Position numbers and translations under genes: made by a program. Below are positions 8,264-29,907 of a stretch of DNA of 64,000 bases, one piece after another. The notes under the pieces were generated by a model. That model was given only the letters and a program-made list of their open reading frames with translations, made no database searches and was not told the origin of the DNA. The DNA lies in NCBI GenBank assembly GCA_964434115.1, contig CAYSSX010000002.1, forward strand, positions 9,680 to 73,679, read 5' to 3'. Position 1 is the stretch's first letter, and each line of letters begins with the position of its first letter. Source of the DNA: an uncultured bacterium. Its GTDB lineage: Bacteria > Omnitrophota > Omnitrophia > Omnitrophales > Aquincolibacteriaceae.

Positions 8264-8506
8264 ATGGCAAAGAAAGCCTACCATCTTTTTTTTGAGCAGA
8301 AGATGATCAAGGAGCCGATTATGTTTCTCGTGGCCCGCGATCATAACCTTCTTTTGAATATCCGCCGCGCAAAGATTACGGCAGAGACCGGGGAAGCGAC
8401 CGTGGAGCTTGAAGGCGATGAAAAACAGATCTTGAAAGCCGAGCAGGCCTTTCGCGCCAAAGGCGTGAAGGTTGAATCCGTGTTAGGGGATATCCTGGAA
8501 GGTTAA
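8264..8506 (+). CDS. Small NIL/ACT-like domain protein (80 aa)
   Basis: Short ferredoxin-like pattern with an LLLNIRRAKI segment reminiscent of the NIL domain of methionine-transporter C-termini. Translationally coupled (TGAtATG). Weak call. Confidence 0.3.
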   Translation: MAKKAYHLFFEQKMIKEPIMFLVARDHNLLLNIRRAKITAETGEATVELEGDEKQILKAEQAFRAKGVKVESVLGDILEG

Positions 8507-9567: not shown

Positions 9568-9634
9568 AAAAGGCCGTGTCTTATTTCCCGCGGTGTTCCC
9601 TCTCGGGGAGCCGGCCGCAAGACCGGATCATCGC

Positions 9635-10369: not shown

Positions 10370-11586
10370 TGCACGGGCGCGCAGTGGTGATTACAGGGCT
10401 TGGCGTGGTTTCCCCGATCGGAGTGGGAATTCCGGCGTTTCTTGAAAGTCTGAAAGCTGCCCGCTCGGGAGAGGGGCCGATTACATCCTTTTCAGCAGAC
10501 TCTTTTCCATTCAAACGGGCTTTTGAGGTGAAGGGTTTTGACCCGCATCATCACGGACTCCAGGCTGTAGACCCCTTTATTCAGTATGCCGTAGCTTCCG
10601 CGGATGAAGCGATTCGCGATGCGGGTTTTGATTCGGGTTCCGTGGATCCCTACTCCATCGGAATCTCGGTGAGTTCCAGCAAGGGAGGGGTTCACACGAT
10701 TGACCGTTTCAAGGAACGCCTGATGAGAAATCCGAGCGCCATTTTGGGCGCGCGTGTTTACTCAAGTGCGGTTCCCAATTTTGGAGCGCAGTGGATCGCG
10801 AGACGCTGGAAAGTGCAAGGCCCGGCCAAGTGTTATGTCGCGGCCTGCGCGACAGGAACCGTTGCTGTGATTGAAGGCATGCGGATGGTTGCGGAAGGTG
10901 TTGTCGATTACTGCATCGCGGGGGCGAGCGACGCCTCAATTGTGCCTCTGATGCTTGCCGGGTACCGGAACATGAAGGCTCTTTCGAATGATGAAATGCG
11001 GCCTTTTGATAAACGGCGTAACGGCTTTCTGGTGGGGGAAGGCGCGGGAATTGTTTTCCTTGAGACCCGCGAAAGCGCAGAGCGGCGCGGGGCAGCCATC
11101 TACGGAGAGATTCTGGGGTTTGGCTATGGGAGTGATACGAGCGACATGCTTCGCTTTGATGAAAAAGAGCACGCTCTTTCCCGCACAGGCGCGGCGGCAT
11201 TGAAACGCGGCGGCCTTTCGCCCGGAGAAATTGATTACGTGAACCTTCACGGAACCGCGACGCCTACGGGAGATATTTATGAGACCCGTGAGATGAAACA
11301 GCTGTTCGGAGAAAATGCTAAAAAAATCCCCATGAGTTCAACGAAATCAATGACAGGCCACATGCTCGGAGCTTCCGGTGCGGTGGAAGTCATCGCCTGC
11401 CTTCTTGCCATGAAGCATGGTTTTGTCCCGCCCACGATCGGGCTTCATGAAAAAGATCCGGACTGCGATCTTGATTATGTGCCCAACACGGCCCGGGCAG
11501 AAAAAATTCAGAACGCCCTTTCGGTTTCTATGGGTTTTGGCGGGCATGTCGCAGCTCTTCTTCTGGGCCAAGGCCGGGGGCGTTGA
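10366..11586 (+). CDS. Beta-ketoacyl-ACP synthase I/II-like (FabF-like)
   Basis: Active-site AACATG Cys, HGTATPTGD and GHMLGASG His motifs. Start overlaps the SDR stop (ATGA). Confidence 0.85.
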   Translation: MMHGRAVVITGLGVVSPIGVGIPAFLESLKAARSGEGPITSFSADSFPFKRAFEVKGFDPHHHGLQAVDPFIQYAVASADEAIRDAGFDSGSVDPYSIGISVSSSKGGVHTIDRFKERLMRNPSAILGARVYSSAVPNFGAQWIARRWKVQGPAKCYVAACATGTVAVIEGMRMVAEGVVDYCIAGASDASIVPLMLAGYRNMKALSNDEMRPFDKRRNGFLVGEGAGIVFLETRESAERRGAAIYGEILGFGYGSDTSDMLRFDEKEHALSRTGAAALKRGGLSPGEIDYVNLHGTATPTGDIYETREMKQLFGENAKKIPMSSTKSMTGHMLGASGAVEVIACLLAMKHGFVPPTIGLHEKDPDCDLDYVPNTARAEKIQNALSVSMGFGGHVAALLLGQGRGR

Positions 11587-11587
11587 G

Positions 11588-12784
11588 ATGGCGGATTCTC
11601 CAAAAACGGAATTTCTTTTTGAACAGCATTTGAAAGAAGCTCTGCACGAGCTTGAAGACCGCGGCATGCACCGGAAGCTTCGCACCCTGAAACTGACCGC
11701 CGCTCATCAAACGATGCTGGAAGGCCGCCCTGTAACCCTTTTTTGCAGTAATGACTATCTCGGACTTTCCCGTCATCCCCGTTTGATCAAAGCCTTTCAG
11801 GACGCAGCTGTTTACGGGACCGGATCAGGAGCCGCGCGTTTAATTTCGGGATCCACTGATTTTCATGACCGGCTTGAAAAAAAAATTGCTCAATTTAAAG
11901 GCTGTGAAAAAGCGCTTCTTTTTTCTACCGGGTACCTCGCAAACCTCGGTGTGCTGAGCGCTCTGGCGGGGGAAGGTGACCTGATTCTGATGGATAAGCT
12001 TTGCCACGCGTCACTTATTGACGGCGCCAGGCTTTCGGGGGCGGCCCTCAGGATTTTTCCGCACAAGCAGTATGGGAGATGCGAAGAAATTTTAAGCCAA
12101 TCCTCAGGGTTCAGACGCCGCCTATTGGTCACTGATTCTGTTTTTAGCATGGATGGTGACATTGCGGATCTAGGCGAACTGATACGTCTGAAAGAAACCT
12201 ACGATGCTGTTTTGGTGGTGGATGACGCCCATGGCACGGGGGTGACCGGTCCGAAGGGGCGCGGCTCGTGCGAGGACCCTCAAACCGGAAAAAGGCCTGA
12301 TGTGGTGGTGGGGACCCTCTCCAAGGCCCTGGGATGCCTCGGGGGTTTTGCTGCGGGATCCGAGGCGGTGATTGAAACCCTGGTCAACAGGGCAAGGTCC
12401 TTTATTTTTGCAACCTCTCTCCCTCCAGCGGTTTGCGCTGCGGCCTATGAGGCCTTTTGCGTGGTTGAGGAGGAGCCGTCCCTGAGGGAGAAGCTTCACG
12501 CCAACATAAAGATTCTGGAGGAGGGCTTGAAAAACTCGGGTTTTGATGCGATCCTTTCCGGAACGCCGATTTTCCCGGTTATTTTAGGAGAAGAGAGGGC
12601 CGCACTCGAGGGGTCCAAAGCCCTTTTGGAATCAGGCTTTTTGATCCCCGCGATACGCTACCCAACGGTGGCCAAAGGAAAAGCCCGCCTTCGGATTACG
12701 GTCAGCGCAATTCACAGCGAAAAGGAAATTCGGAATCTGATTGATAAAATCAGGCTTATAAAAAAGCAAACTCTTCCGATATAG
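11588..12784 (+). CDS. bioF: 8-amino-7-oxononanoate synthase
   Basis: AOS-family PLP enzyme motifs (DDAHGTG, TLSKALG). ATG overlaps the KAS stop (TGAgATG). Confidence 0.8.
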   Translation: MADSPKTEFLFEQHLKEALHELEDRGMHRKLRTLKLTAAHQTMLEGRPVTLFCSNDYLGLSRHPRLIKAFQDAAVYGTGSGAARLISGSTDFHDRLEKKIAQFKGCEKALLFSTGYLANLGVLSALAGEGDLILMDKLCHASLIDGARLSGAALRIFPHKQYGRCEEILSQSSGFRRRLLVTDSVFSMDGDIADLGELIRLKETYDAVLVVDDAHGTGVTGPKGRGSCEDPQTGKRPDVVVGTLSKALGCLGGFAAGSEAVIETLVNRARSFIFATSLPPAVCAAAYEAFCVVEEEPSLREKLHANIKILEEGLKNSGFDAILSGTPIFPVILGEERAALEGSKALLESGFLIPAIRYPTVAKGKARLRITVSAIHSEKEIRNLIDKIRLIKKQTLPI

Positions 12785-12790
12785 AAGATC

Positions 12791-13561
12791 ATGGCAGGAA
12801 CGAAACAACGGCTGTCTAAAATTCGTGAGGAAGCGGGAAAGCTTTTCTCGCTTGAGAGTACCCTCCAGAAAAGCGTTACCGCGCTTAACCTCGGCGCATT
12901 GTTTGGAGTTATTTATCTCACGCTTCCCTTATCTTCCAGGGGGAAGATGGATCCCCTTCAGACAGTGATTCTTGTCATCCTCGGACTCTTTCTGGCGGCC
13001 AATTATATTCAGCATGTGGTCATGATGCGCCTTCGTGCCAAATGGGCTGAAATCGAAGAGCAGTCTTCACACGATGGCCTGACAAAGGCGTTCAACCGCG
13101 AAGCTTTTGATGACATTCTCGAAGAAGAAATGAGCCGCGCGAAGCGTTACAAGTACCCGCTCAGCCTTTGCATCATCGACCTCGATAACTTTAAAACTTA
13201 CAATGACACTTACGGGCATCCCAAAGGCGACAGGCTTCTGATGGACTTCGCCGACCGTGTGCAAAAAGCGATTCGTACCGCCGACTGTTTGGCCCGTTAC
13301 GGCGGCGATGAGTTCTGTGTGCTGCTGCCGCACACTGACCTGGTCAGCGCTGAAAAATTTCTTTCCCGGATTCTCCCTGAGATCCAAGAGTGGCTGGACT
13401 TTACTTTTAGTGCCGGTGTCACAAGTTTCCGGCCAAATGACAACAGCTTGGAATTTGTCACGCGTGCTGATCTGGCGCTTTATCAGGCGAAACGTGAAGG
13501 CAGAAACCGGATCCGCTGTTTGATTGGTGAAGATGACAGCTCTGTGGTTGTGAAGTTTTAA
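12791..13561 (+). CDS. Membrane-anchored GGDEF diguanylate cyclase
   Basis: Two N-terminal TM helices followed by a GGDEF domain with an intact RYGGDEF active site. Confidence 0.8.
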   Translation: MAGTKQRLSKIREEAGKLFSLESTLQKSVTALNLGALFGVIYLTLPLSSRGKMDPLQTVILVILGLFLAANYIQHVVMMRLRAKWAEIEEQSSHDGLTKAFNREAFDDILEEEMSRAKRYKYPLSLCIIDLDNFKTYNDTYGHPKGDRLLMDFADRVQKAIRTADCLARYGGDEFCVLLPHTDLVSAEKFLSRILPEIQEWLDFTFSAGVTSFRPNDNSLEFVTRADLALYQAKREGRNRIRCLIGEDDSSVVVKF

Positions 13562-13610
13562 TTTTTTCTTCGAATGAGTTCCTCAGACGTACCCCTCAAA
13601 TCAGGATGCT

Positions 13611-15730
<2,120 letters not shown>

Positions 15731-16873: not shown

Positions 16874-18250
16874 ATGCGAGGCATCACCCTCGAAGGTAAA
16901 AAAGAATCCACCCTTATCACCTGGACGCTGAAGCGTCTGCGCAACCCTGTTCGTGTCCGCATTTCTCTCAAGCAAGGCCCGCTGGATAAAACCACGGCTT
17001 GCGTTCGTCACGATGATTTGGTCAAAGCCGGCCAGAAAATCGCGGAACCCGCCGACTCTTTTTCCGTTCCCCTGCACGCCAGTGTTTCCGGACGCGTGAT
17101 TACCGTAGGCTCATTCCCGCATCCGACCCTCGATTCCTGCGATGCTATTGAGATTGTGGGGGACGGCAAGCATGAAACCGTTCCGGGTGTGGGAACCGAA
17201 CGTCATGGGTGGGATTTGCTTTCGCCTGATTCACTGACCGCGCTGTTTCGTGAAATGGGGCTTGTGAGCCTGACGCCCGGTATGGTTCCTTTGCATGTTC
17301 TTATTGAAGATGCTCGGCAGCACAAAATCCACACGCTTGTCATCAATGCCTGCGAGCCCGAGCCGTATGTGACAAGCGATCACTCCCTGATGATGTCGCA
17401 TCCGCTTGAAATTCTGAAAGGGGCGGAACTTCTTCGCCACGCCTGCGGCGCTGAAAAAGTGATCATCGCCCTTCAGGAAGACAAGATGCAGGTGGCTGAA
17501 CTTTTCAAAAGCAAAATTTATTTTTTGAAATGGGAGAATATTGAAGTCCGGGTTCTTCCATCAAAGTTTCCGCAGGGACTTTCACTGCCGCTGCTTCACG
17601 CGCTTTTTGGTCTGAAAATAAATTTCCCCCGGGAAGCCCAGGCCGAGGAGCCGGAACAGGCCGTTGAGCTTGGCTTGGCGAAAGAGTTTCACCGTCAAGG
17701 ACTCGCGCTTCAGGCTGTTGCAACAGCCTATGCTGTCTATGAGGCCGTGGTTTTGCAAAAACCTCTTTATGAAAGACCGGTCACCGTGGCGGGGGAATGC
17801 GTGATGGAGCCGAAAAATCTTTGGCTTCCGATGGGACTCAGCCTTCAGGATTCTTTCAAATCCGCGCGGGGCTTAATGAGGGAACCCGGAAAGGTTGTGA
17901 TGGGCGGTCCCATGCTGGGTTGGGAGCAGGAAGCTCTGGAGGCTCCGATTCTTAAAGGTACGACCGCGCTTTTGGCTTTGCCGAAAGAAGTGACTTTTGT
18001 TCCTGAAGTGACTGCCTGTACTCATTGCGGACGATGCGTGGAGATTTGTCCTTCCGAGATTTCCCCTGTGATGATTACGCTTGCCGCGGAGCAGGGCCTT
18101 TATGAAGAATCTCAGGCCTGGGGTGCTCTTGACTGCATCCGCTGCGGCAACTGCACGTACATTTGTCCCGCAAAACGCCCCATGGCGGATCTCATCCGCG
18201 ACGCCCGGCAGAATCTTTTGCCGATCAAGCGCGAAAATCAAAAAGAATAA
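16874..18250 (+). CDS. RnfC-like protein with two C-terminal 4Fe-4S cluster motifs and a degenerate flavin/NADH site
   Basis: Aligns to RnfC (..LVINACEPEPYVTSDHSLM..). C-terminal CTHCGRCVEICP and CIRCGNCTYICP motifs. The canonical GGAGFP motif is replaced by SLTPGMVPL. Confidence 0.7.
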   Translation: MRGITLEGKKESTLITWTLKRLRNPVRVRISLKQGPLDKTTACVRHDDLVKAGQKIAEPADSFSVPLHASVSGRVITVGSFPHPTLDSCDAIEIVGDGKHETVPGVGTERHGWDLLSPDSLTALFREMGLVSLTPGMVPLHVLIEDARQHKIHTLVINACEPEPYVTSDHSLMMSHPLEILKGAELLRHACGAEKVIIALQEDKMQVAELFKSKIYFLKWENIEVRVLPSKFPQGLSLPLLHALFGLKINFPREAQAEEPEQAVELGLAKEFHRQGLALQAVATAYAVYEAVVLQKPLYERPVTVAGECVMEPKNLWLPMGLSLQDSFKSARGLMREPGKVVMGGPMLGWEQEALEAPILKGTTALLALPKEVTFVPEVTACTHCGRCVEICPSEISPVMITLAAEQGLYEESQAWGALDCIRCGNCTYICPAKRPMADLIRDARQNLLPIKRENQKE

Positions 18251-19590
18251 TTCATTTCCCCGATATAAAGATTTTCAGGCATGCCGTATTCTTCATGAGG
18301 GCCGCCGGCGTAAAGCTGGGCCGCCAGCGTCAGGAGCAAGTTGCTTCGGAGTTCATAGCGGAGTTCCGGGCGAAGGAAAAGGCTCGTGTCATCCATGTTT
18401 AAAATCAGCCGGTGCTCAAAGCGAAGCAGTGAGGTGATGTTGTAGCCCATCAAAAGGGCGCTGTAATTTTTCGCAAGCTGCTGGATGTCCCCGTCGATGA
18501 AGCGAGCGACTTCGTAATCGTCCGTATTTCTCCGTCCCTCACCATTAAAATGATATTCCAAAAGCCCATAGACGTTGTGCGGAAAGTTGTAGTCCGCGTT
18601 TAAAGTAAACTTGATAAAGTCCCGCCCCTGATCGACTTCCCGGTAGAGGAACTCCCCGCGGACCGCAGAACTTTTAACATTTCCCTGAAAGTCAAAGCCG
18701 AGCGCATGATCCCGCTGAATACGGCCTCCGAGAACACCCATTTCAAAACCATAAATATCCTTTGAGATGCGGCCCAAATAGCGCTGAGGGTGGAGATCGC
18801 GGCCGCGGGGTGTGTAAATAAACTGCCATTTCATGTCCGCGAAATTTTTCGCGATCATGTTGACGGCATCCACGCCATCCCGTTCTTCAAGTTCAATCTG
18901 GGTGGGGCTGAAGGGATTGAATAAGTCGGTGGGGGTGAAGAAGTGGCCGACCCCCCAGGGAATCTGCTGACGTCCGATTTCTACCGAGAAATCATTGTTT
19001 TCATAAACCACGCTGGCCCGGTACAGGCGGTGTTCATAAAGAGCGCCGTGTTCTTCGACAAGATCCTGGCTGAGATCCAGGAACTGGCGCTTTTCGCTCA
19101 GGTTGTGGGCCATCCTGAAATCCCCGGATCCGACAAAGCTCCCGAAGGACGCTCCGTGATCGTAATCCACCTTCACCGTGACCCTGTGATTTTCTTTGAC
19201 GTCCCAGGTGCTTTTGAGTTTGAGGCGGATTCTTTCCATGCTGGAGAAAAGGCTCTCTCTTTTTTCTCCTCCGGCCAAAGGATTGTCCGCAAGCTCTGGT
19301 GTGAGTCCCGTGGTTTTGGTGAAAAAGTTCAAGGTTTTGATATACCCCGAAAGGTGGGTGTCGAGGGGCGCCTCGCCGGCAAAAACCCAGGCCGGAACAA
19401 GGGCAGCAAGTGAAAGCGCCGCGGTTAACCAAAAACGAAGAGGCAGTCTTGCCGAGGGCTTTCTTTTGAGACTCCCGGAAAAATTGGAATCAAGAAGTTC
19501 GGGCACCGCGGCGGGAGAATTTTTGAGTTCAAGGGCATCGTGAAGAATCGAACCCCGTTTTAAATCTTCCCGGATTTTTCCAGGCATCAT
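18238..19590 (-). CDS. Outer-membrane beta-barrel protein (C-terminal aromatic residue), last gene of the minus-strand operon
   Basis: Signal-peptide-like segment LTAALSLAALVPAWVFA. Alternating amphipathic strands. Ends ..EMNYSF. True start uncertain (long N-terminal lead before the signal peptide). 4-nt overlap with the upstream ATPase. Confidence 0.5.
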   Translation of the reverse strand: MMPGKIREDLKRGSILHDALELKNSPAAVPELLDSNFSGSLKRKPSARLPLRFWLTAALSLAALVPAWVFAGEAPLDTHLSGYIKTLNFFTKTTGLTPELADNPLAGGEKRESLFSSMERIRLKLKSTWDVKENHRVTVKVDYDHGASFGSFVGSGDFRMAHNLSEKRQFLDLSQDLVEEHGALYEHRLYRASVVYENNDFSVEIGRQQIPWGVGHFFTPTDLFNPFSPTQIELEERDGVDAVNMIAKNFADMKWQFIYTPRGRDLHPQRYLGRISKDIYGFEMGVLGGRIQRDHALGFDFQGNVKSSAVRGEFLYREVDQGRDFIKFTLNADYNFPHNVYGLLEYHFNGEGRRNTDDYEVARFIDGDIQQLAKNYSALLMGYNITSLLRFEHRLILNMDDTSLFLRPELRYELRSNLLLTLAAQLYAGGPHEEYGMPENLYIGEMNYSF

Positions 19591-20270
19591 GAAACAATCG
19601 CTCCGTCCTGCATGCGGATCACCCGCTCCGCCCGTTCAATCATCACCGGGTCATGACTGGCGTAAACAAACGTCATGCCTTCTTTCTTATTTAATTCTTT
19701 GAGAAAATCCATGAGCGTTGCGCCGGTTTTGTGATCAAGGTTAGCGGTCAATTCATCACCCAAAACAATTTTAGGTTTGTGCACAATAGCCCGGGCAACG
19801 GCCACACGCTGCTGCTGGCCCCGGCTAAGCTCGGCAGGTCTCCGGCCGATCAATTTTTCAATGCCAAAGCGGGCGCAGACTTCCAGGGCGCGCTGGCGGC
19901 GTTCCTGGGGGCCAACCCCCTGGAGCCAAAGAACGTATTCCACATTCTCAAGAGCGGACAAAGTTGGAATAAGATTGAAATCCTGAAAAATAAAACCAAT
20001 TTTGTGCAGGCGAAGCCGCGAAAGTTTCCCTTGATCATAGCGGCTGATTTCTTCGCCGTCGAGAAAAACCTCCCCGGAAGTGGGGCGGTCCAGACATCCG
20101 ATTAAATTAAGAAGTGTGGTTTTGCCTGAACCGGAAGGTCCGCAGAAGGCAACAAAGGAACCCGCGGCGATGGAAGTCGAGACTTCCTGCAGGGCCTGCA
20201 CCGGAAGGGAGTGTCCGGTAAAAACCTTCGATAATTTTTTAACTTCGACAAGAGGCTGTGTCATGGTCAC
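19587..20270 (-). CDS. ABC transporter ATP-binding protein, LolD/MacB type
   Basis: Walker A GPSGSGKTT, LSRGQQQRVAVARA signature, Walker B at VLGDELTANLD, about 227 aa. Confidence 0.85.
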   Translation of the reverse strand: MTMTQPLVEVKKLSKVFTGHSLPVQALQEVSTSIAAGSFVAFCGPSGSGKTTLLNLIGCLDRPTSGEVFLDGEEISRYDQGKLSRLRLHKIGFIFQDFNLIPTLSALENVEYVLWLQGVGPQERRQRALEVCARFGIEKLIGRRPAELSRGQQQRVAVARAIVHKPKIVLGDELTANLDHKTGATLMDFLKELNKKEGMTFVYASHDPVMIERAERVIRMQDGAIVS

Positions 20271-21490
20271 GAATGATAAATCGCTTTAACAGGTTCCATC
20301 CGCCCCGCTTTCCAGGCCGGATAAAGACTGATCAGGGTTGTTAAACTGAGAAGCGTTAAAACCGATTGGATGACGTGTGCGGGTTCAACCCGTGTATAGG
20401 TGACAGTGCTCATGTAGGAGCGCGAGAAAGCGGCCTCAAGCTCGGGAAAGGCAATGCCGGTGACACCGAAGTAGCCCACGACCGAATAACCGGCGAGAAG
20501 CCCCAAAAGAATGCCCCAGCATTCGAGAACAATAGTTTCAAGAAGAATGAGCCCGATGATGCGGCCCGGGCTTGTCCCTAGCGCGAGCATAACACCGATC
20601 TCACGGGTTCTTTCAAAAACAGACATCAGAACCGTATTCATGATGCTGACGCCAATCACCACCATGACCGCGACGAGAATGGTTTTGATAATGGCTTCCG
20701 CCCACTGGGCCCACTGTTCCACTTCCGGTACAATTTGATCCCAGGTTAAAAGCTCATAATCTTTTTCACTGACAAAGGGACGGAACGCTTTAATAAAGGC
20801 GCTGATATGTTTTCTCGAATCCAGGCGAAAGACCATTTCATGAGTGTCCTGGCCAAGCCCCAGCAATTCCTGCGCGGATTCCAGCGTGATGTAGGCGGCG
20901 ATCTCATCCACCTGCTGGCTGCCGGTGTGAAGAATTCCGGCAATGTGATAAGAGTAGCCCGCCAGAGTTCCGTCCAAGGCTTGGGTCATGACGACCAGTT
21001 TGTCGCCCACGCCCGCTTCCATGCGCTTGGCAAGCCTTGAACCGATGAGGATAGAGCGCTTGTCCTCCTTTGTTAAGTAGGCGCCTTCCCGGACATACTG
21101 TTCAAGCTGGGTGACTTTCTTTTCCTGATCCGGATCGATTCCCATGAGAAGAACCCCGCGGGAACGTTCACTGGTCCCTAAAAGCGCCTCGCATTTCGCG
21201 CGTTCCGTGTAGGTTACAAAACCCGGAAGTTTTGAGGCGTTTTTGAGAAGGGCCTCACGGTTTGGAATAATCAGTTCGGGTGAAAGGGCTTTTTCAAAAC
21301 CCGCGGCGTGAACTTGGACGTGGCCGGTATAGAGGCGTATGACATTCTCACGCATTTGTTCATTGGTACCGTCGCTGAAACCCCACAGGAAGATCAGGGC
21401 GGCAAGGCCAACGCCCACGGCAAGAACCGTGATCACGGAACGCCGGGGGTTACGGCCGATGTTTAAAAACGCGAGTTTGAGTAAAAACAT
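20267..21490 (-). CDS. FtsX/MacB/LolCE-family ABC transporter permease
   Basis: N-terminal TM, large periplasmic domain, three C-terminal TM helices. 407 aa, typical of LolC/E-MacB permeases. Confidence 0.8.
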   Translation of the reverse strand: MFLLKLAFLNIGRNPRRSVITVLAVGVGLAALIFLWGFSDGTNEQMRENVIRLYTGHVQVHAAGFEKALSPELIIPNREALLKNASKLPGFVTYTERAKCEALLGTSERSRGVLLMGIDPDQEKKVTQLEQYVREGAYLTKEDKRSILIGSRLAKRMEAGVGDKLVVMTQALDGTLAGYSYHIAGILHTGSQQVDEIAAYITLESAQELLGLGQDTHEMVFRLDSRKHISAFIKAFRPFVSEKDYELLTWDQIVPEVEQWAQWAEAIIKTILVAVMVVIGVSIMNTVLMSVFERTREIGVMLALGTSPGRIIGLILLETIVLECWGILLGLLAGYSVVGYFGVTGIAFPELEAAFSRSYMSTVTYTRVEPAHVIQSVLTLLSLTTLISLYPAWKAGRMEPVKAIYHS

Positions 21491-22425
21491 CAGGGGTATT
21501 TTTCAAGGTTTGACTTCGTGAAAAGGGAATCAGGGATTTCTTGATCAAAGGCGGCTTCCTGAATCGTGACGGTGGTGGAGCGGTCCTTATCCTTGTGATT
21601 GGACATCTTCCACACGGTCGGGATCTCATGAGTTCCGAAAGATTTGAAATCAGAATATTCCAAGGTCCGGATGTGAACGAGCTTTTCATTAAAAAAGTCC
21701 CAGCGTACAGGCGCGGAATCTTTTTGCCGGAGCCACACCACGAGCTTTCCGTAAGTGACAGGAGCATCGGGTTTGGGAATGAGTTCAAGGCGGTAGCAGT
21801 CAAACCCATCGATCTTTTCTTCCCCGGCAACGGAACCGTCATAATCGCGGGGCATATAGCTCAGCTTCACAAAATCATCATTGGAGAAGTCGCTGCCCAT
21901 AAAATCATCAAGCATGAGTGACGGGGGGATAAGGATGGTGCGCTCCGCAGACGGCAGGTATTGCCATAGCCGTGACTGAACTCTGAGAAAGCCCTGGCCT
22001 TCCGACTTGGAAGGGGAGAGAACGCGCGCAAATGTATAATCGATGCCCTTCATCCAGACCCGGATTTTGTAATCACGCTCCCAGCGCGAAGTCTTCACGT
22101 GAAGAACAACCGTCATGTCATGCGATTTTCCGCGGAGAACCTCGTCCATTTGAGCCAAAAGTATCTTTATGTCCGGCTGCGGCTCTGCGGCAGAGGCCGT
22201 GTCTTGGGTGCTCAAGACAGGCGCATTTGGGGTAACAAGGCTGCTTTCCAAAGCAACAGCCTTAGCCTCCGGCTCTGTTTGAACCGGAGCTTGAGATTGC
22301 GTTGGAGCTGGAGCCGCCGGTGTCGGCGGAACCGGAAGAGGCTGCTGTGGCGGACGACGGAAATAAAAAAAACAGGCCGCAGCAATAGCGGCTAAGACGG
22401 CTAGCAGTAACCAATTTTTTTTCAT
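21490..22425 (-). CDS. Periplasmic LolA-like (outer-membrane lipoprotein-sorting-like) protein with a Pro/Ala/Gln-rich linker
   Basis: Signal peptide, low-complexity PPQQPLPVPPTPAAPAPTQ linker, then a beta-rich domain resembling the LolA-like fold family. Overlaps neighbouring genes by 1-4 nt. Confidence 0.45.
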   Translation of the reverse strand: MKKNWLLLAVLAAIAAACFFYFRRPPQQPLPVPPTPAAPAPTQSQAPVQTEPEAKAVALESSLVTPNAPVLSTQDTASAAEPQPDIKILLAQMDEVLRGKSHDMTVVLHVKTSRWERDYKIRVWMKGIDYTFARVLSPSKSEGQGFLRVQSRLWQYLPSAERTILIPPSLMLDDFMGSDFSNDDFVKLSYMPRDYDGSVAGEEKIDGFDCYRLELIPKPDAPVTYGKLVVWLRQKDSAPVRWDFFNEKLVHIRTLEYSDFKSFGTHEIPTVWKMSNHKDKDRSTTVTIQEAAFDQEIPDSLFTKSNLEKYP

Positions 22426-23351
22426 AGGGCCGCCTCGACTTCCTTCTTAGTTTTTATAGAAGCCGCTTGAGAGACGGTTTTTTTTCGAGAGGGAAGGAAG
22501 AATTTTAGAACAATCCATTTTTTCAGGCGCATCAAGGGACTCCGCATACCCTGAGGGTAAGTTCTTATCACTGTTTTCTGGGTCATGAGGTCGGTTTGAT
22601 AAACCGTTGGAGCAAACGCTGTTTTTCTTTTGCCCGTCAGGTGTTTGACGGCTTCGGTTCCCGTAATAGCGCCGACCAGCATAAGCCCCGGCGAAACACT
22701 TGAGGCGCGCCGGCTTCCGAGCTCGGAAGCGCGCGAGTTCATATAAGACAGGCACAGAGGGGTTGGGGACAGGCCGAAGGCGAAAGCGAAATTTTTATCC
22801 TCTTCCGAAAGTCCGGGGCGAAAGTCAAAGTACTCTTCAAAGGTCATACCTTGCGGAGAAAAAACAAGGAGCGAAGCGCCGAACCCGAGCGGACAAGAGG
22901 TGATAACAGTAAGCCCCTTTTCGCGGCTCTTGCGAAACAGAAGAAGTTTGGCCTCGAGCGCGAAAAAGTCGATGCCATCAATAACGAGGTCGGAGCCGTC
23001 AAGAAAAGAGCTGATGTTTTTCTCGTGGACACCTTCCGGAAAAAGTTCGACGTCAGCTTCAGGGTTAATGGAGAGGACCATGTCCCGAAGAACCGCGACT
23101 TTGGATTTTCCCAAAGAATCATGCGTTGCGCCGATTTGGCGGTTCAGGTTGGTCAATTCGAAGACGTCAGGGTCCGCGAATTTAAAGCGTGTGATTCCGA
23201 GGCGGGCCAAGGCCTGGGCCTGAAAACCGCCCGCTCCACCAAGTCCCGCAATGGCCACCGTGGACTGCCTTAACTTGGCCTGTTCTTCGTTGGTCAGCCA
23301 GCCAAGATTACGGTCAAAGGCCTGATCATAATCAAAAACTCCGGCAGGCAC
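22422..23351 (-). CDS. ThiF/MoeB/MccB-type E1-like adenylyltransferase
   Basis: IAGLGGAGG nucleotide-binding loop, NLNRQ catalytic motif, DxD region (LVIDGIDFF). C-terminal about 130 aa of unknown function. No CxxC pairs. Confidence 0.75.
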   Translation of the reverse strand: MPAGVFDYDQAFDRNLGWLTNEEQAKLRQSTVAIAGLGGAGGFQAQALARLGITRFKFADPDVFELTNLNRQIGATHDSLGKSKVAVLRDMVLSINPEADVELFPEGVHEKNISSFLDGSDLVIDGIDFFALEAKLLLFRKSREKGLTVITSCPLGFGASLLVFSPQGMTFEEYFDFRPGLSEEDKNFAFAFGLSPTPLCLSYMNSRASELGSRRASSVSPGLMLVGAITGTEAVKHLTGKRKTAFAPTVYQTDLMTQKTVIRTYPQGMRSPLMRLKKWIVLKFFLPSRKKTVSQAASIKTKKEVEAAL

Positions 23352-23439
23352 TGTGGTCTCCTTTAAATTAGGTATCGCAAAACGAAGCTTTAAAAAACAA
23401 AAAAGGACATTTGATAGCTTAAGGCAAGAGCCTTAATTG

Positions 23440-24576
23440 TCAATCCTTGTTTCCCATGTGCAAGCTCTCCTCAGGAAGTAAAAAACTTTCAAGAGGCCGT
23501 CTGAGGGAGCGGCCTCCAGCGGGAGAGGCATAGCCGATGCGGAAAAGCAGGATAAGTCCTTGCCAGGGTTTTAATCCAAAAAGGTAAGAGAACCGCGATT
23601 TCATGTTTTCCAGTTTTTTGCGTTGCTCGCCGGAAAGATCACGGCCATTGGTCAGCTCTGAATTAATCAGAAAAATAGGCAAAGCTTCCATGGGTTGAAA
23701 TGCAAGCCCTTGGGCTGTGGCTTCATGCCAGATGCGCTGCATGACTTCACCGCCCTGGACATAATGCTCCGGTGCTTTTCCGGGTGCCACAATAAGTCCG
23801 CAGGCCTGCGATGAGAGCATTTGCATCTTGGCGTAGAGATTAAAGGAAAAACTCATTCCCAAAGCGTTCAGGAATTGCAGGCGGTTCCAGGACCGGAGAA
23901 GCCCGAACATGAGACCCGCAGAAGGGCCGGCATCAAGACTCGTTAGCGGAAGCCCGTCACGTGTTTCCTCGGCCTCTTTATCCGAGAAGCGCATGACCTT
24001 CATAAGTTCCTGGTGAAGACGGAAAATCTCAAAACGAAGCTGGTCCGCTTCCCCGATTAAGGAGGCCATATCCCGGTAATGCGCAGTTCCTTGTTTTAGC
24101 CAGAGCAGCCGGTAACCGCGGTTGGGGTCCGATTGATTTTCCAAGGCCCGGAACACCGGGTCCGGAAGCGGAGCGGAAGACTTATAAAATTTACGGTTGG
24201 TGTGCCGCTTTTCCAGGAATTGCAAATGCGGGTGCTTATGCGCAGCGCCCGGCAGCCATTCCACGTGAATGGGTTTTAGGGGATGGTCCGTTTCCGGAAA
24301 ATAGTCGGCCCGGATGCCTGCTCCGAAAGCAGAAGCCGCAACGCGGATATTTTCAACAACTGCCCCCGCCGAAAGGTAAGGAGCCGCGTAACCCTCATCG
24401 CAGTAACTGGCAAGCAGTTCGGGATTCAGGAAAAGATCGACCCCGTTTTCAAGAATCCGGAATTTCCACGGCTGGAGGTTGTCGGCCGAAGGTGCCAAAA
24501 TACCTTTTTTTAAAATATCCAGAACCTGATTCCGGGTCAGCTTTGCATGCGCCGTTTTTTGAACTTCAGGAGTCAT
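23440..24576 (-). CDS. Two-domain nitroreductase-superfamily (FMN) protein, SagB-like dehydrogenase
   Basis: N-terminal APSADNLQPWKF nitroreductase signature. Second repeat begins at EKRHTNRKFY. 378 aa. Confidence 0.65.
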   Translation of the reverse strand: MTPEVQKTAHAKLTRNQVLDILKKGILAPSADNLQPWKFRILENGVDLFLNPELLASYCDEGYAAPYLSAGAVVENIRVAASAFGAGIRADYFPETDHPLKPIHVEWLPGAAHKHPHLQFLEKRHTNRKFYKSSAPLPDPVFRALENQSDPNRGYRLLWLKQGTAHYRDMASLIGEADQLRFEIFRLHQELMKVMRFSDKEAEETRDGLPLTSLDAGPSAGLMFGLLRSWNRLQFLNALGMSFSFNLYAKMQMLSSQACGLIVAPGKAPEHYVQGGEVMQRIWHEATAQGLAFQPMEALPIFLINSELTNGRDLSGEQRKKLENMKSRFSYLFGLKPWQGLILLFRIGYASPAGGRSLRRPLESFLLPEESLHMGNKD

Positions 24577-25832
24577 TAGGCCGCGCCCTCTTTTTTGACA
24601 TCGGTTGATTTTTCAGGGAAATCCAGGTCCGGGTAAAGCGATTGAAGAACGGCTTTATTTTTCTGAATAAGGTCCTGCTTGATGACACCCTCGAAAAGGT
24701 ATTTCGAAAACAAATCCGTGTCCCACGTCAGGTACCGGCCCAGCTCTTCAGGCGACATGGGATTGTTCAGAAAGTACAGGCCTGCCCCCTTGTGAATAGA
24801 CGCTGTCCGGATAACGTAATCAAGGTCCATGTGCATGAGAAGCGCGGGTTTTCCCTGAGCGCCCGGGTAAGAGCGCACAGGCCCCACGGCATCAAAATGC
24901 AGATAGCGGTAAAGGTCTTTGTGCTTGGGATGCATTCCGATCACGAGGTCGGTGATGCCGCCCATAGTTCTCGCATAATCAAAAAGAATTTTGAACATCC
25001 GGAAAGAGCCGGTTAATTTCTGGAAATCCGTGAGCGAGAAAGAATGGCGGGTGAAGGCCTCACCGTCAAGCGCAAGAAGTCCTACTTCGGCAAGCCTTCT
25101 GCCGGGTTTTCTCAGAGAAGCGATTTCCTCAGGGAAAATGGATTCGAGCGGCAGCCCGCAGCCAGAGTCGGTAATAAGGCTCACCGTGCCCGCAAGATTT
25201 CCATTTTTTTCGAGAAGGAAAGTCCGCGACTCCGGAAGAATACTGTAAAGCGAGTAGTGGAGGCCGCGTGAATTTTGAGCGCAGTAATTCTTCAGACGGT
25301 ATTCCCTGTAAACCAGCTCATAGGCCTTTTGAAGTTCTTCGGAAGTGACCGCTGTTCTGCAGCCGAAATTTTTCTCATTGCGTTCTGCCAGGCTGCAAAT
25401 TTTGTCAGCCATGAAATACATGATTTTTTCTTTATTGGAAAGCTGGCGAAGATTTTTAAATGCGATTCCGCATTCCATGGCCGTTTGGCCGTTGGATGAG
25501 GGATTGGCCCACACGATGACGCCTTCGAGACGCACGGTTTTTTCAATTTCCGGAAGTTTAATGTCGAGATCTACCTGGGTGCCGACAGCAACTTTGCGGT
25601 CGAGTGCGAGGCGGACTCCGTTCCGGGAGACATCGATCGAATGGGAATGAAACCAGGGAAAATTTGCGCCCTTGGGGCGGTACCGTACGGGAAGACTGAA
25701 AGAGATGCGTGCTTCCCGGCGTTTTTCAAGAAGCGGGTCAACACTTACAGGGGCAGGCTGGGTTTGACCAAAAACATTGTCTTCCAAAATCCCGATGCCC
25801 AGTTCCCAGTTCCACGCGGTGCTCAGTTTCAT
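24576..25832 (-). CDS. PilZ domain fused to GNAT-fold N-acyl amino acid synthase-like domain (FeeM/OlsB-like)
   Basis: PilZ motifs RREAR (RxxxR) and DVSRNG (DxSxxG). C-terminal about 250 aa has an N-acyltransferase-like pattern (YELVYREYRL.., acyl-HSL-synthase-like fold). First gene of the operon. Confidence 0.5.
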   Translation of the reverse strand: MKLSTAWNWELGIGILEDNVFGQTQPAPVSVDPLLEKRREARISFSLPVRYRPKGANFPWFHSHSIDVSRNGVRLALDRKVAVGTQVDLDIKLPEIEKTVRLEGVIVWANPSSNGQTAMECGIAFKNLRQLSNKEKIMYFMADKICSLAERNEKNFGCRTAVTSEELQKAYELVYREYRLKNYCAQNSRGLHYSLYSILPESRTFLLEKNGNLAGTVSLITDSGCGLPLESIFPEEIASLRKPGRRLAEVGLLALDGEAFTRHSFSLTDFQKLTGSFRMFKILFDYARTMGGITDLVIGMHPKHKDLYRYLHFDAVGPVRSYPGAQGKPALLMHMDLDYVIRTASIHKGAGLYFLNNPMSPEELGRYLTWDTDLFSKYLFEGVIKQDLIQKNKAVLQSLYPDLDFPEKSTDVKKEGAA

Positions 25833-26036
25833 GAAACCTCATTATCGGGTTCAGGGGGTTGAACGTCCCACAGGTCGCGGTTCACAAAGCGCTCAAAAGC
25901 TCCAAAACACACTTTTCTTGCTAAACTTAAGTCTACCCGCCCCTATTAGTTAATACAAGGAAGGGCCAAGGAAAAGACCTGGAGGTTGCATCTTGCATCC
26001 AGAATTGCTATTTTGAGCCATAAAAACCAGGAAATC

Positions 26037-26978
26037 ATGCCCCAAAACACCCTGAAAAACGCGCCCTATCTAAGAGCCAAAGAGACTTCCAGCCTTATGG
26101 CCTGGAAGAAAACAGCGGCCCTTCTGCCGCTCGTGGCAACGGCTGTTATCTTTTACCGGCTTCCGGGAATTTTGCTGATTTCAACGACCGTCATTTCAGC
26201 CTTGCTGGCGGAACGAATTTCCCGTTTTTATCTTCGGGCCAAGCCGTCTTTTCAAGATGGAAACTCTGTTTTAACCGGGCTTATTGTCGCATTGGTGGTT
26301 CCGGCGGGGCTTCCTCTTTGGATTGCTGCTTTGGGTGCGTTTATAGCCGTGGCCATCGGGAGTGAAGTCCTGGGAGGCCCTGGGCATTCCCCGCTGCCGC
26401 CGGCCATCACGGGATATCTTTTTCTCCTGGTGAGTTTTCCATTAGCCATGAGGCATTCCTTGGAACCCGGGTTTTTGGAGCCGGCAGCAATGCCTCTTGT
26501 CTGGCTGAAAGAAGGTGCCTTAGATGCTTTACCTGGTTGGGGTGAGATTCTTGCGCGGCCTATTGCAGGACCGATCGGAACTGTTTTTTTTCCAGCGCTG
26601 CTGATCAGCGCCGCCATTCTTATTTCTCAGCGGCTCATTTTTTGGGAAATGCCTTTTCTCTATCTTGCCGCAGCAGGCCTTGCGGCTTTTGGTTTTGGAG
26701 AAGATCCTATTTTAGTTCTCTTTTTGGGCCTGCCGATTTTTGCCGCGTTTTTTATTATTCCGGAGTCTCTGACCGCGCCGCATCACCGCCACAGTGTCCG
26801 TTTTTTCGCATTGTTTGCCGGTGTTTTAACTACGGTTCTTCGGCATGTCTCTTTCGCGTTTGATCCCGCGCTGTCGGCGATTTTTCTTTGCTCTTTCTTG
26901 GCCTCTTGGCTGGATGAAGCAGGACGTCCCGAACCGCGTAAACCGCGCCAGATATCCGGAGCAGAAAAGCCGGCATGA
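26037..26978 (+). CDS. RnfD/NqrB-like membrane subunit lacking the covalent-FMN threonine motif
   Basis: Aligns well to RnfD (LTGLIVALVVPAGLPLWIAALGAFIAVAIG.., ..ESLTAPHHRHSVRFFALFAG..). The position of the canonical SGAT reads GLPI. Start ATG 26037 with an AGGA upstream. Confidence 0.7.
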   Translation: MPQNTLKNAPYLRAKETSSLMAWKKTAALLPLVATAVIFYRLPGILLISTTVISALLAERISRFYLRAKPSFQDGNSVLTGLIVALVVPAGLPLWIAALGAFIAVAIGSEVLGGPGHSPLPPAITGYLFLLVSFPLAMRHSLEPGFLEPAAMPLVWLKEGALDALPGWGEILARPIAGPIGTVFFPALLISAAILISQRLIFWEMPFLYLAAAGLAAFGFGEDPILVLFLGLPIFAAFFIIPESLTAPHHRHSVRFFALFAGVLTTVLRHVSFAFDPALSAIFLCSFLASWLDEAGRPEPRKPRQISGAEKPA

Positions 26979-28833: not shown

Positions 28834-29907
28834 ATGAACATCGAAGGTATTCTGAATTATGCGATTGAAAGAGAAGCCTCGGATATCCACCTCAGCGTGG
28901 GGCGTCCCGCATCCGTCCGGCGTCATGGCGAGATTATCTCCATTGATGACCATGTGCTTACCGCGGAAGATACCGAAACCCTGGCCCGTGAGATCACCAG
29001 TGAAGAACAGCGCAAAAAAGTGGAAGAGGTTGGCGGTATTGATTTTGGTTTTTCGTATGGCAAAAGCGCCCGCTTCCGCGTGTCTTGTTTTAAGCAGTCC
29101 GGCACTTACGCGATGGTGCTTCGTCAGCTGCCTTTTAAATTCTATTCTTTTGAGCAGATTGGTTTACCGCAGCAATTAGCCGGCCTTCTTTCCCGTCCGA
29201 GAGGTTTGATTCTTGTGACCGGTCCCACGGGCTCTGGTAAAACCACGACCTTGGCAACGATGTTAAACTACATCAATGAGAATTTCCCCCGCCACATCAT
29301 TACCGCGGAAGACCCGATTGAGTTCGTTCACCCGCATAAAAAATCGATCATGACCCAGCGCGAAGTGGGAGAAGACGTGCCGAGCTTTTCTGAAGCCGTA
29401 ATCAAAGCGCTTCGTCAAGACCCCGACGTTATCCTTATTGGGGAAATGCGCGACATCAACACCATGGAGTCTGCTATCCGCGCTGCAGAAACGGGACACC
29501 TTGTTTTTTCAACGCTTCACACCACGGGTGCGGCGCGCACCGTGGACCGGATTATTGACGTTTTTCCGTCCCATCAGCAGACGCAGGTGCGTATTCAGCT
29601 GGCCTCAACAATTGTTGCCGTTATTTCCCAAACGCTGATTCCCCGCCTTGATGGAAAAGGGCGTACTTGTGCGTTTGAAATTATGATCGCCACACCAGCA
29701 ATCCGGAATTTGATCCGCGAAAACAAAACCTATCAAATCACCTCTGAAATTCAAACCGGGGCTAAGTACGGTATGAAGGCCCTCGATGATCATCTCAAAG
29801 ATCTTTACCAGGCCGGTATCATTGGCTATGACGCCATGATTGAGGTGGCCCAGGACCCCCGAGAACTGGCCGCGCGTGTCACGCAGCCATCAGCGGCTAA
29901 GGGTTAG
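28834..29907 (+). CDS. pilT: Type IV pilus retraction ATPase
   Basis: Walker A GPTGSGKTT. PilT-specific motifs (AIRAAETGHLVFSTLHT, Asp box, His box). 357 aa. Confidence 0.9.
   Translation: MNIEGILNYAIEREASDIHLSVGRPASVRRHGEIISIDDHVLTAEDTETLAREITSEEQRKKVEEVGGIDFGFSYGKSARFRVSCFKQSGTYAMVLRQLPFKFYSFEQIGLPQQLAGLLSRPRGLILVTGPTGSGKTTTLATMLNYINENFPRHIITAEDPIEFVHPHKKSIMTQREVGEDVPSFSEAVIKALRQDPDVILIGEMRDINTMESAIRAAETGHLVFSTLHTTGAARTVDRIIDVFPSHQQTQVRIQLASTIVAVISQTLIPRLDGKGRTCAFEIMIATPAIRNLIRENKTYQITSEIQTGAKYGMKALDDHLKDLYQAGIIGYDAMIEVAQDPRELAARVTQPSAAKG

Follow-up and report, generated by a model that had tools for sequence, protein, structure and literature searches.

The PilZ-FeeM fusion gene and its operon

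[quoted passage not shown]

24576..25832, reverse strand, PilZ-FeeM fusion gene (418 aa), operon gene 1
[quoted passage not shown]
22422..23351, reverse strand, TyzB-like ThiF-family ATP-dependent cyclase/adenylase (PF00899, 145 bits)
21490..22425, reverse strand, candidate LolA-like (TP_0789-like) periplasmic lipid carrier (PF17131, 169 bits), overlapping the ThiF gene by 4 nt
20267..21490, reverse strand, MacB/FtsX-type ABC permease (PF02687 and PF12704)
19587..20270, reverse strand, ABC transporter ATPase (PF00005)
18238..19590, reverse strand, putative DUF1302-like outer-membrane barrel, the seventh and final operon gene, named after a relative with a weak DUF1302 match

The PilZ-FeeM gene is an uninterrupted frame with an ATG start and a GAGG Shine-Dalgarno sequence 4 nt upstream of it, and Pfam orders its domains as PilZ (aa 36–132) and then FeeM (aa 169–336). 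This is a real fusion and no assembly artefact. That two separate genes were merged by assembly or gene calling has practically no probability, given that the frame is continuous, that a 100% identical protein (P0001) occurs on independent contigs, and that both the architecture and the conserved junction recur in unrelated assemblies, in dozens of diverged homologs. We propose that the gene product is a two-domain cytoplasmic enzyme.

Judged by gene spacing, PilZ-FeeM heads a closely packed operon of seven genes and is translationally coupled to the enzyme genes behind it: neighbouring genes share 1 or 4 nt, the FDO start overlapping the PilZ-FeeM stop codon (TAATG, −1 nt), and the sole gap, of 88 nt, lies between the FDO and ThiF genes. 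The C-terminal half of the NCBIfam model NF005901 (‘Rv1355c family’, TrzS) matches the FDO with an E-value of 1.5e-60 (positions 365–718 of 722), as does PRK14851 (8e-64), and its closest PDB structure is that of Acg (2ymv), which was also reported in the case of TrzS. The 120 best matches listed in a homolog search with the FDO are all uncharacterised proteins, mostly from metagenomes, with TyzC, TrzS and OxzB not among them. The ThiF protein scores 333 bits against PRK08223 (cutoff 266) and 266 bits against the ThiF-FDO model PRK14851; its best PDB match is the cyclodehydratase TcdA, with the GLGGAGG, NLNRQ and VIDGID motifs aligned. All three window enzymes match the NCBIfam model PRK14852, in which FeeM, ThiF and FDO form one 989-aa protein. 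Together with a PilZ-FeeM-ThiF triple fusion among the homologs (P0085) and with ThiF-FDO fusions that align with the window FDO at 31–33% identity, this model provides a Rosetta-stone link between the enzymes. The likeness to TyzC and TyzB is thus drawn from NCBIfam profiles and from the logic of domains and gene order.

The last gene product is 45% identical (E 3e-127) to a protein of locus L006 that has a weak DUF1302 match; its own DUF1302 match is sub-threshold, and its C-terminus reads ...YSF. With TyzC-like and TyzB-like enzymes and an export system downstream of the fusion, the operon suggests that its product is an N-acyl oxazolone or a dehydro-amino-acid lipid. A scan of positions 17900..26200 for promoters and terminators gave counts at the level of shuffled sequence (4 versus 4.8 and 16 versus 13.4, respectively), so that we claim no regulatory site, and a scan of the whole window at Rfam gathering thresholds gave no match and thus no c-di-GMP riboswitch in the window. 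The earlier note on this DNA had considered the fusion apart from its operon; the TyzC-like, TyzB-like and exporter genes are its most informative context.

Domains and conserved residues of the fusion protein

Within the PilZ-FeeM gene we distinguish the following features, from the N-terminus of the protein to its C-terminus:

25770..25808, reverse strand, N-terminal motif WELGIGILEDNVF (aa 9–21), preceding the PilZ domain and kept across the aligned PilZ-FeeM proteins
25437..25727, reverse strand, PilZ beta-barrel domain (aa 36–132; PF07238, 53.7 bits)
25707..25721, reverse strand, RxxxR c-di-GMP-binding motif (RREAR, R38 and R42; aa 38–42), from the translation
25617..25634, reverse strand, [D/N]hSxxG c-di-GMP-binding motif (DVSRNG, aa 67–72), from the translation
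25380..25433, reverse strand, conserved helix (aa 134–151, FMADKIC) at the junction of PilZ barrel and NAS core in the AF2 model
24825..25328, reverse strand, FeeM-type NAS domain (aa 169–336; PF21926)
25086..25088, reverse strand, putative catalytic glutamate E249 in an LAEV motif, aligned with the LAEV glutamate of FeeM (2G0B)
24579..24824, reverse strand, C-terminal helical extension (aa 337–418), common to PilZ-less members of the NAS subfamily

The earlier note had read both PilZ signatures, RREAR and DVSRNG, in the N-terminal part and proposed a Pfam scan. The translation bears out both, and the scan gives a clear PilZ match that lies far beyond chance (gathering threshold 22.5, E 2.8e-14). 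In the model, six beta-strands between aa 48 and 125 form the six-stranded barrel fold, and Foldseek matches it to MotI/DgrA (5vx6) and to the PilZ domain of BcsA (4p00/5ej1) at E-values of about 1e-5. DVSRNG fits the refined [D/N]hSxxG motif, V68 taking the hydrophobic h position (bioRxiv 10.1101/814665). Across 40 aligned PilZ-FeeM homologs, with identities down to 38%, few positions in the N-terminal half are as well conserved as the motif residues: R38 and R42 are each kept in 37 of 40, D/N67 likewise in 37, and S69 and G72 in all 40. By this measure the c-di-GMP-binding residues, like the catalytic ones (below), are under purifying selection, and such conservation supports binding of c-di-GMP by the PilZ domain.

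PilZ domains that do not bind the ligand are known (bioRxiv 10.1101/814665), and the domain might instead be a ligand-blind structural or adaptor module, like the eponymous PilZ protein, with no role for c-di-GMP. Consistent with this possibility, RxxxR is missing from three of the 40 homologs and the PilZ domain of one protein (P0019) is degenerate. [quoted passage not shown]

The AF2 model of the whole protein has a pLDDT of 79 and a pTM of 0.71, with pLDDT below 50 over aa 1–41 and over the RxxxR segment. The WELGIGILEDNVF motif lies in this stretch, where a helix is predicted for aa 10–21 (pLDDT < 50), and its residues are well kept among the homologs (W9 in 35 of 40, E17 in 36, D18 and N19 in 33 each); it is possibly a regulatory lid.

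The C-terminal part had been likened in the earlier note to GNAT-fold and acyl-HSL-synthase-like enzymes, and both likenesses were recovered. PF21926 (FeeM) matches far beyond chance at 121.2 bits (gathering 27, E 4.7e-35) over its full length (positions 1–158 of 158), and the profile match to FeeM itself (2G0B) has an E-value of 1.2e-23. FeeM is also the top Foldseek match of the C-terminal part (E 2e-12, target TM-score 0.79–0.85, 26–28% identity); the acyl-homoserine lactone (AHL) synthase LasI follows at 1.8e-6, and BjaI and TofI are significant too. The NAS domain is modelled at pLDDT > 90 and, in the model, has a FeeM/GNAT-type acyltransferase fold. The presumed catalytic E249 is invariant (40 of 40 homologs). 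Its FeeM counterpart is position 96 of the deposited 2G0B chain and Glu95 in the published numbering, implying a one-residue offset between the two, and the equivalent Glu103 of Nas354 is essential, the E103A variant being inactive (PMC4897644).

Between the two domains, D143 of the helix at aa 134–151 is invariant. This helix was considered as the C-terminal helix of PilZ and rejected as such, since PilZ-less homologs carry the same motif; on this pattern of conservation it belongs to the NAS module. At the other end, aa 337–400 of the extension are modelled at pLDDT of about 85–95, and PilZ-less homologs align through profile position about 404.

Relatives and characterised counterparts

At 90% identity the proteins with PilZ-FeeM architecture fall into about 44 clusters, and at 50% into about 45–50; they come from many independent assemblies, and almost all from Candidatus Omnitrophota MAGs. 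The order of the seven genes is kept in relatives at 57–90% identity (loci L008, L009, L010, L013 and L029). At many related loci, FDO and ThiF are missing, with radical SAM, AMP-binding and SDR tailoring enzymes in their place, which implies that the end product is not uniform across the family. The opposite domain order also occurs: two FeeM-PilZ proteins (P0066, P0067) adjoin a ThiF that is 38% identical to the window ThiF and belongs to its subfamily. In locus L054, the reverse-order fusion is followed by a gene for 365 aa that is not homologous to the FDO.

PilZ might bind c-di-GMP without catalytic effect and instead steer the enzyme's location or partners (ThiF/FDO or the membrane MacB exporter), so that channelling or export, rather than turnover, would respond. 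PilZ proteins mostly act via protein–protein interactions (PMC4897644), the fusion of FeeM with ThiF in P0085 and PRK14852 suggests a complex, and the amphipathic-looking N-terminal motif (aa 9–21) could serve as a docking element. On the other hand, the PilZ barrel meets the conserved NAS helix without a flexible linker, favouring intramolecular coupling, and the PilZ-FeeM fusion is retained where the neighbouring partner enzymes and transporters are quite different ones. We thus consider a purely localizing PilZ unlikely, if worth keeping in view, and prefer direct control of the NAS domain.

The earlier note had called a receptor–enzyme fusion of this kind unusual. Rare it is, but not unique: the architecture is a conserved Omnitrophota family, and the same pair in reverse order, published in 2016, is a partial precedent. 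Nas343 and Nas354 are N-acyltyrosine synthases from metagenomes that carry a PilZ domain and for which control by c-di-GMP was proposed without test (Thies et al., 2016, Sci Rep 6:27035; PMC4897644). Like the window protein, they combine in one polypeptide a FeeM-type NAS with a PilZ domain that has the two c-di-GMP motifs, and they keep the catalytic glutamate. Unlike it, they have the NAS domain at the N-terminus, a linker of about 80 aa and then PilZ, they have not been placed in an FDO/ThiF/exporter operon, and they come from a slaughterhouse biofilm rather than from Omnitrophota. As the NAS cores of the window and reverse-order types are only about 28% identical, the PilZ-NAS and NAS-PilZ fusions are probably independent. 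N-acyltyrosine synthase activity was demonstrated for Nas354, in E. coli and without deliberately raised c-di-GMP (PMC4897644), so PilZ need not be an obligate activator.

The enzymes encoded next to the fusion have their closest functional parallel in pathways where a NAS, a nitroreductase-superfamily FDO and a ThiF-like cyclase make N-acyl oxazolones (PMC10404671; PMC12856293; bioRxiv 10.1101/2020.06.11.147165). As in TyzACB and TrzAS of Mycobacterium tuberculosis and OxzAB of Pseudoalteromonas rubra, a FeeM-fold NAS, an FDO and a ThiF-like cyclase are encoded side by side. Both settings include fused enzyme variants, and in both a lipid transporter lies nearby (mmpL9 beside tyz; MacB/LolA-like or MMPL proteins in PilZ-FeeM loci). 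The M. tuberculosis trzAS genes are moreover flanked by the c-di-GMP turnover genes rv1354c and rv1357c (PMC12856293). By contrast, none of the characterised NAS enzymes of these systems has a PilZ domain, and the window operon adds a dedicated LolA-like/MacB/DUF1302-like export set. The literature search found no relevant paper on a pairing of PilZ with oxazolone chemistry, and a review of PilZ domains does not mention acyltransferase fusions (bioRxiv 10.1101/814665).

A further difference concerns oxygen. The characterised pathways belong to aerobic bacteria (Actinomycetota and Proteobacteria) and need O2 for desaturation, as is the case for TyzC and TrzS. The window includes Rnf genes. Omnitrophota are a mostly anaerobic phylum. 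Hence the FDO step may differ here.

An O2-dependent FDO would indeed be odd in a likely anaerobe, and this is one of several points in favour of another reading, in which the C-terminal domain is an AHL-type signal synthase or acylates some other amine, the ThiF and FDO proteins being unrelated to TyzB/TyzC chemistry. LasI, BjaI and TofI are significant structural matches, substrates are not readable from sequence, and the tailoring enzymes are swapped in related loci. Yet FeeM is by far the best match in both sequence and fold, the Pfam autoinducer synthase family gave no match to the PilZ-FeeM protein at E-values up to 1, the three window enzymes all match the fused model PRK14852, and the FDO falls in the TrzS family (Rv1355c; E-value given above). 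[quoted passage not shown]

Regulation by a nucleotide has parallels as well. NasP, so far as its description in a later paper goes (Clardy and Brady, 2007, via PMC4897644), is a cAMP-activated N-acyl amino acid synthase and so would share the regulatory idea proposed here, a NAS under direct control of a nucleotide second messenger, although by that account its messenger is cAMP and its sensor domain a different one. In cellulose synthase (BcsA) and Alg44, as in the window protein, PilZ is covalently joined to a biosynthetic machine or forms part of it; these are membrane polysaccharide synthases, whereas the window protein is a soluble GNAT-fold acyltransferase predicted to make a small lipid. 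The output of both BcsA and Alg44 is switched on by c-di-GMP.

A proposed c-di-GMP-gated lipid pathway

Taking together the identity and fold of the domains, the conserved motifs, the structure and synteny of the operon, and the Rosetta-stone fusions, the best reading, which we hold to be somewhat more probable than its negation, is that c-di-GMP gates the first step in making an exported lipoamino-acid or oxazolone product. From the same evidence we infer ligand binding, allosteric control of the NAS domain by c-di-GMP, substrates, product and export route. The enzymatic steps are modelled on OxzAB, TyzACB and TrzAS by homology. With acyl-CoA or acyl-ACP as the donor, the NAS domain would attach a fatty acyl chain to an amino acid, probably one with an aromatic side chain; the TyzC-like flavoenzyme would then desaturate the N-acyl amino acid, and the TyzB-like ThiF enzyme, with ATP, would activate the carboxylate and cyclise it to an N-acyl dehydro-amino acid or oxazolone. 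Export of this product to the envelope or medium would fall to the MacB-type ABC transporter together with the LolA-like carrier and the DUF1302-like barrel. Binding of c-di-GMP to R38/R42 and D67/S69/G72 would shift the N-terminal segment and barrel against the NAS helix at aa 134–151, and this repositioning of PilZ would control entry into the pathway at its first committed step. If BcsA, Alg44 and the cAMP-activated NasP are a guide, the NAS would probably be activated.

N-acyl oxazolones and N-acyl dehydro-tyrosines were found only recently, between 2021 and 2025, and in the papers cited above their physiological role is called unresolved. A c-di-GMP sensor on the first enzyme of the pathway would be a concrete regulatory input and suggests a role in a sessile/motile or surface-associated switch. 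The reverse-order FeeM-PilZ proteins beside ThiF and the flanks of the M. tuberculosis trzAS genes would be two independent links of c-di-GMP to oxazolone-type chemistry, and with a phylum-wide fusion, the opposite order elsewhere and trz beside c-di-GMP turnover genes, the association appears to be more than a single coincidence. A broader claim, that c-di-GMP acts as a direct, post-translational gate on the committed step towards an N-acyl oxazolone or dehydro-amino-acid lipid that the cell exports, and that this coupling arose at least twice (as PilZ-NAS and as NAS-PilZ), we offer tentatively, as a conjecture that may well fail. If true, it would describe the conversion of an intracellular second messenger into an extracellular or envelope lipid signal, and oxazolone lipids would gain a general role in lifestyle switches under c-di-GMP control, in parallel to the trzAS flanks. 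Enzymes under direct PilZ control make up a short list dominated by polysaccharide synthases, to which the window protein would add a soluble lipid-making enzyme. Omnitrophota are uncultured, often host-associated nanobacteria, and the regulated exported lipid that is indicated here might mediate cell–cell interaction.

One candidate source of c-di-GMP is encoded in the window itself:

12791..13561, forward strand, GGDEF diguanylate cyclase (PF00990, 140.6 bits)

As the earlier note had pointed out, this gene stands amid biotin genes about 11 kb from PilZ-FeeM. Its neighbours are a bioF-like gene on one side and bioA/bioD on the other; on circumstantial grounds it is a possible source of the c-di-GMP that the fusion would sense. 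Its product contains, in RTADCLARYGGDEF, an RxxD I-site and an intact GGDEF active-site motif, by which it is probably an active cyclase.

The PilZ-FeeM protein and its predicted fold

The minus-strand interval 24576..25832 is exactly one ORF of 418 aa, with an ATG start and a Shine-Dalgarno GAGG 4 nt 5' of it. An earlier note on this DNA had claimed a PilZ c-di-GMP receptor fused to an N-acyltransferase-like enzyme, and both halves of that claim were borne out. [quoted passage not shown] NCBIfam added matches to the PilZ-type TIGR02266 and to the N-terminal part of PRK14852. No second PilZ or FeeM copy was found elsewhere within the 64-kb window.

An AlphaFold2 model built from a 40-sequence alignment (mean pLDDT 79, pTM 0.71) was best resolved in the FeeM core (~aa 156-340) and C-terminal helical extension (337-400), both at pLDDT ~85-97, followed by a six-stranded PilZ barrel (aa 48-125, pLDDT 64-84), while aa 1-41, including the RxxxR segment (R38-R42), fell below 50. 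The top Foldseek match in the PDB was FeeM 2G0B (E 2e-12, target TM-score 0.79-0.85, 26-28% identity), with LasI, an AHL synthase, and further GNAT enzymes next. The earlier note would have been refuted by a missing PilZ HMM match or by a C-terminal domain unlike an acyltransferase fold; both features are present. The N-terminal domain resembled MotI/DgrA and the PilZ portion of BcsA, a cellulose synthase, and no solved structure spanning both domains was found in this search. FeeM was likewise recovered when PDB sequences were searched by profile (E 1.2e-23), the alignment pairing E249 of our protein with the glutamate of the FeeM LAEV motif, the proposed catalytic base. The equivalent of E249 in Nas354, Glu103, was shown to be essential (PMC4897644).

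Conservation of ligand-site and putative catalytic residues among 40 full-length homologs (identity down to 38%)
R38, RxxxR motif: 37/40
R42, RxxxR motif: 37/40
D/N67, [D/N]hSxxG motif: 37/40
S69, [D/N]hSxxG motif: 40/40
G72, [D/N]hSxxG motif: 40/40
E249, putative catalytic glutamate: 40/40

Such conservation is what would be expected if a functional ligand site were coupled to a functional active site. The interdomain helix (aa 134-151, FMADKIC, with D143 invariant) also occurs in PilZ-less homologs, so the PilZ barrel is joined straight to an N-terminal NAS helix, with no flexible linker between them. Another motif, WELGIGILEDNVF (aa 9-21; 25770..25808, minus strand), lies on the N-terminal side of RxxxR and is kept throughout the PilZ-FeeM alignment. 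Its predicted structure is helical, with low confidence, and it could be a lid or docking element.

An operon resembling N-acyl oxazolone pathways

PilZ-FeeM is the first gene of a seven-gene operon (18238..25832, minus strand) in which adjacent genes share 1 or 4 nt, except at one gap of 88 nt:

24576..25832, minus: PilZ-FeeM (ORF and Pfam)
23440..24576, minus: nitroreductase-superfamily flavin-dependent oxidase, FDO (Pfam, NCBIfam)
22422..23351, minus: ThiF-family enzyme (Pfam, NCBIfam)
21490..22425, minus: LolA-like/TP_0789-like protein (Pfam)
20267..21490, minus: MacB/FtsX permease
19587..20270, minus: ABC ATPase
18238..19590, minus: 450-aa protein, 45% identical to a DUF1302-like protein and ending in ...YSF, hence a probable outer-membrane barrel

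The earlier note had cited only a GGDEF gene in the biotin operon as context and did not include this operon. Its FDO matches the C-terminal halves of two NCBIfam models, 'Rv1355c family' (E 1.5e-60) and PRK14851 (E 8e-64), and has Acg as its closest solved relative. The ThiF protein scores above the PRK08223 cutoff, also matches the N-terminal half of PRK14851 (NCBIfam), and is closest among solved structures to the cyclodehydratase TcdA, with nucleotide-binding motifs intact. The 989-aa fusion model PRK14852 (FeeM+ThiF+FDO) is matched by all three window enzymes, in successive segments.

A trio of NAS, FDO and ThiF constitutes the N-acyl oxazolone pathway in the published systems OxzAB of Pseudoalteromonas rubra (bioRxiv 10.1101/2020.06.11.147165), TyzACB and TrzAS (Rv1356c + Rv1355c; PMC12856293). 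Of the M. tuberculosis Tyz enzymes, TyzA uses lauroyl-CoA to N-acylate Tyr or Phe, TyzC carries out an O2-dependent desaturation and TyzB cyclises with ATP; mmpL9 adjoins the genes (PMC10404671). Comparative genomics led to the same three-gene set being proposed for the planctomycetal stieleriacines, which are N-acyl dehydrotyrosines (PMC12479983). By analogy, the window FDO would desaturate an N-acyl amino acid, the ThiF enzyme would cyclise it through adenylation, and the MacB/LolA-like/DUF1302-like set would export the product. However, the characterised FDOs are O2-dependent, whereas our organism is a probable anaerobe with Rnf genes; the acceptor, or even the reaction, may differ here.

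The operon lies between rnfC (16874..18250, plus) and rnfD (25986..26978, plus), splitting the rnf cluster (region 16874..26978), and is likewise nested in two homolog loci, L008 and L009. Directly downstream of the rnf genes is a PilT/T2SSE-type ATPase gene (28834..29907, plus), a place taken in L008 and L009 by a T2SSE-family ATPase gene.

Precedent and possible control by c-di-GMP

In our literature search, PilZ was connected with NAS only by Thies et al. 2016 (PMC4897644), who described the N-acyltyrosine synthases Nas343 and Nas354, termed their domain organisation unique, and proposed, but did not test, regulation by c-di-GMP. The domain pair is thus already known, but in reverse order: PilZ is C-terminal in those proteins and N-terminal in ours. 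Our homolog set includes two reverse-order relatives, P0066 and P0067 (FeeM ~48-205, PilZ ~312-390), with a NAS core that shares no more than 28% identity with that of the window protein; the ThiF encoded next to them is nevertheless of the window ThiF's subfamily (38% identity, E 7e-59). Two domain orders and diverged cores suggest that PilZ was coupled to NAS chemistry convergently, by independent fusions. The OxzAB, TyzACB and TrzAS papers do not mention PilZ, nor does a PilZ review mention acyltransferases (bioRxiv 10.1101/814665). The TrzAS authors did note that in M. tuberculosis two genes of c-di-GMP turnover, rv1354c and rv1357c, flank trzAS (PMC12856293).

The analysis documents the two domains and their fold, the conservation of ligand-site and catalytic residues, the coupling of the operon genes, their synteny and the fusions. 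Beyond this, we envisage that c-di-GMP would bind the RxxxR + [D/N]hSxxG site and reorder the N-terminal segment and barrel against helix 134-151, thereby gating acyl transfer. We favour activation, by analogy with BcsA, Alg44 and the cAMP-activated NasP. Nevertheless, high c-di-GMP might instead repress surfactant-like products, and Nas354 showed activity in ordinary E. coli (PMC4897644), so the regulatory sign could go either way. Three things are new here: the N-terminal PilZ variant of NAS, its phylum-wide conservation in Omnitrophota and its place as first gene of an operon for TyzCB-like, oxazolone-type biosynthesis and export. Whether c-di-GMP controls these lipids, which were discovered only recently, thereby becomes directly testable.

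The GGDEF gene of the earlier note does exist: it encodes a 256-aa GGDEF diguanylate cyclase (12791..13561) in which both the GGDEF active-site motif and an RxxD I-site are intact, and is wedged in the biotin operon (11417..15730, plus) between a bioF-like gene and bioA/bioD. The arrangement looks conserved, as L007, a distant Omnitrophota relative, has a GGDEF gene directly upstream of bioA-bioD. The link of the window GGDEF gene to PilZ-FeeM is circumstantial only. Two hydrophobic N-terminal stretches of the window protein resemble transmembrane segments.

Distribution and architectural variants

The fusion had been called unusual, and the architecture is indeed rare, but it defines a conserved family, not an isolated case, and the reverse order was already published. 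A 100%-identical protein occurs on independent contigs. A word-indexed search returned 67 homologs (~44 clusters at 90% identity with both domains), all metagenomic, the named ones mostly Candidatus Omnitrophica. Exhaustive HMMER over 1.84 billion representatives gave 449 matches at E≤1e-30, of which ~45-50 top matches aligned both domains and hundreds more only profile position ~135-404. Among GTDB species genomes, full-length matches were essentially all in Omnitrophota MAGs, and FeeM-alone matches occurred in Desulfobacterota, Acidobacteriota and others.

The whole seven-gene order is retained at 57-90% identity in five loci (L008, L009, L010, L013, L029). In more distant PilZ-FeeM loci the LolA-like gene persists together with a DUF1302 gene and a MacB/ABC or MMPL transporter. 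The tailoring enzymes of these loci differ: L003 combines ThiF with B12-radical-SAM enzymes and a beta-eliminating lyase, and L007 has AMP-binding and SDR enzymes. Within 10 kb, 48 distinct loci, many of them short, had LolA-like (19), MacB (19), ThiF (13) and FDO (10) neighbours. This pattern, and the same export set beside a PilZ-less homolog (L006), point to an ancestral module of NAS plus exporter, with ThiF and FDO as frequent additions and PilZ as an N-terminal add-on in one clade. Variants include PilZ-PilZ-FeeM (P0073, 510 aa), tandem FeeM-FeeM (P0133, P0182; 585 aa) and PilZ-FeeM-ThiF in one chain (P0085, 680 aa); these, P0085 above all, strengthen the predicted functional links.

RxxxR is lost in a few family members, such as P0019, a PilZ-FeeM paralog in L007 (10001..11281). 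Divergently transcribed there is a 417-aa FeeM protein (8465..9718, minus) with only a sub-threshold PilZ match; both are probably c-di-GMP-blind derivatives. In L003 (2527..7559), two B12-binding/radical-SAM proteins and the lyase stand in place of FDO, in an operon retaining ThiF, the LolA-like gene, DUF1302 and an MMPL transporter; the set may be an oxygen-independent tailoring route. Tandem PilZ-FeeM paralog pairs occur in many Omnitrophota loci (L005, L020-L025, L030, L036, L038), and the five FeeM-type and three FDO matches within ~20 kb of L030 suggest diversified lipid products.
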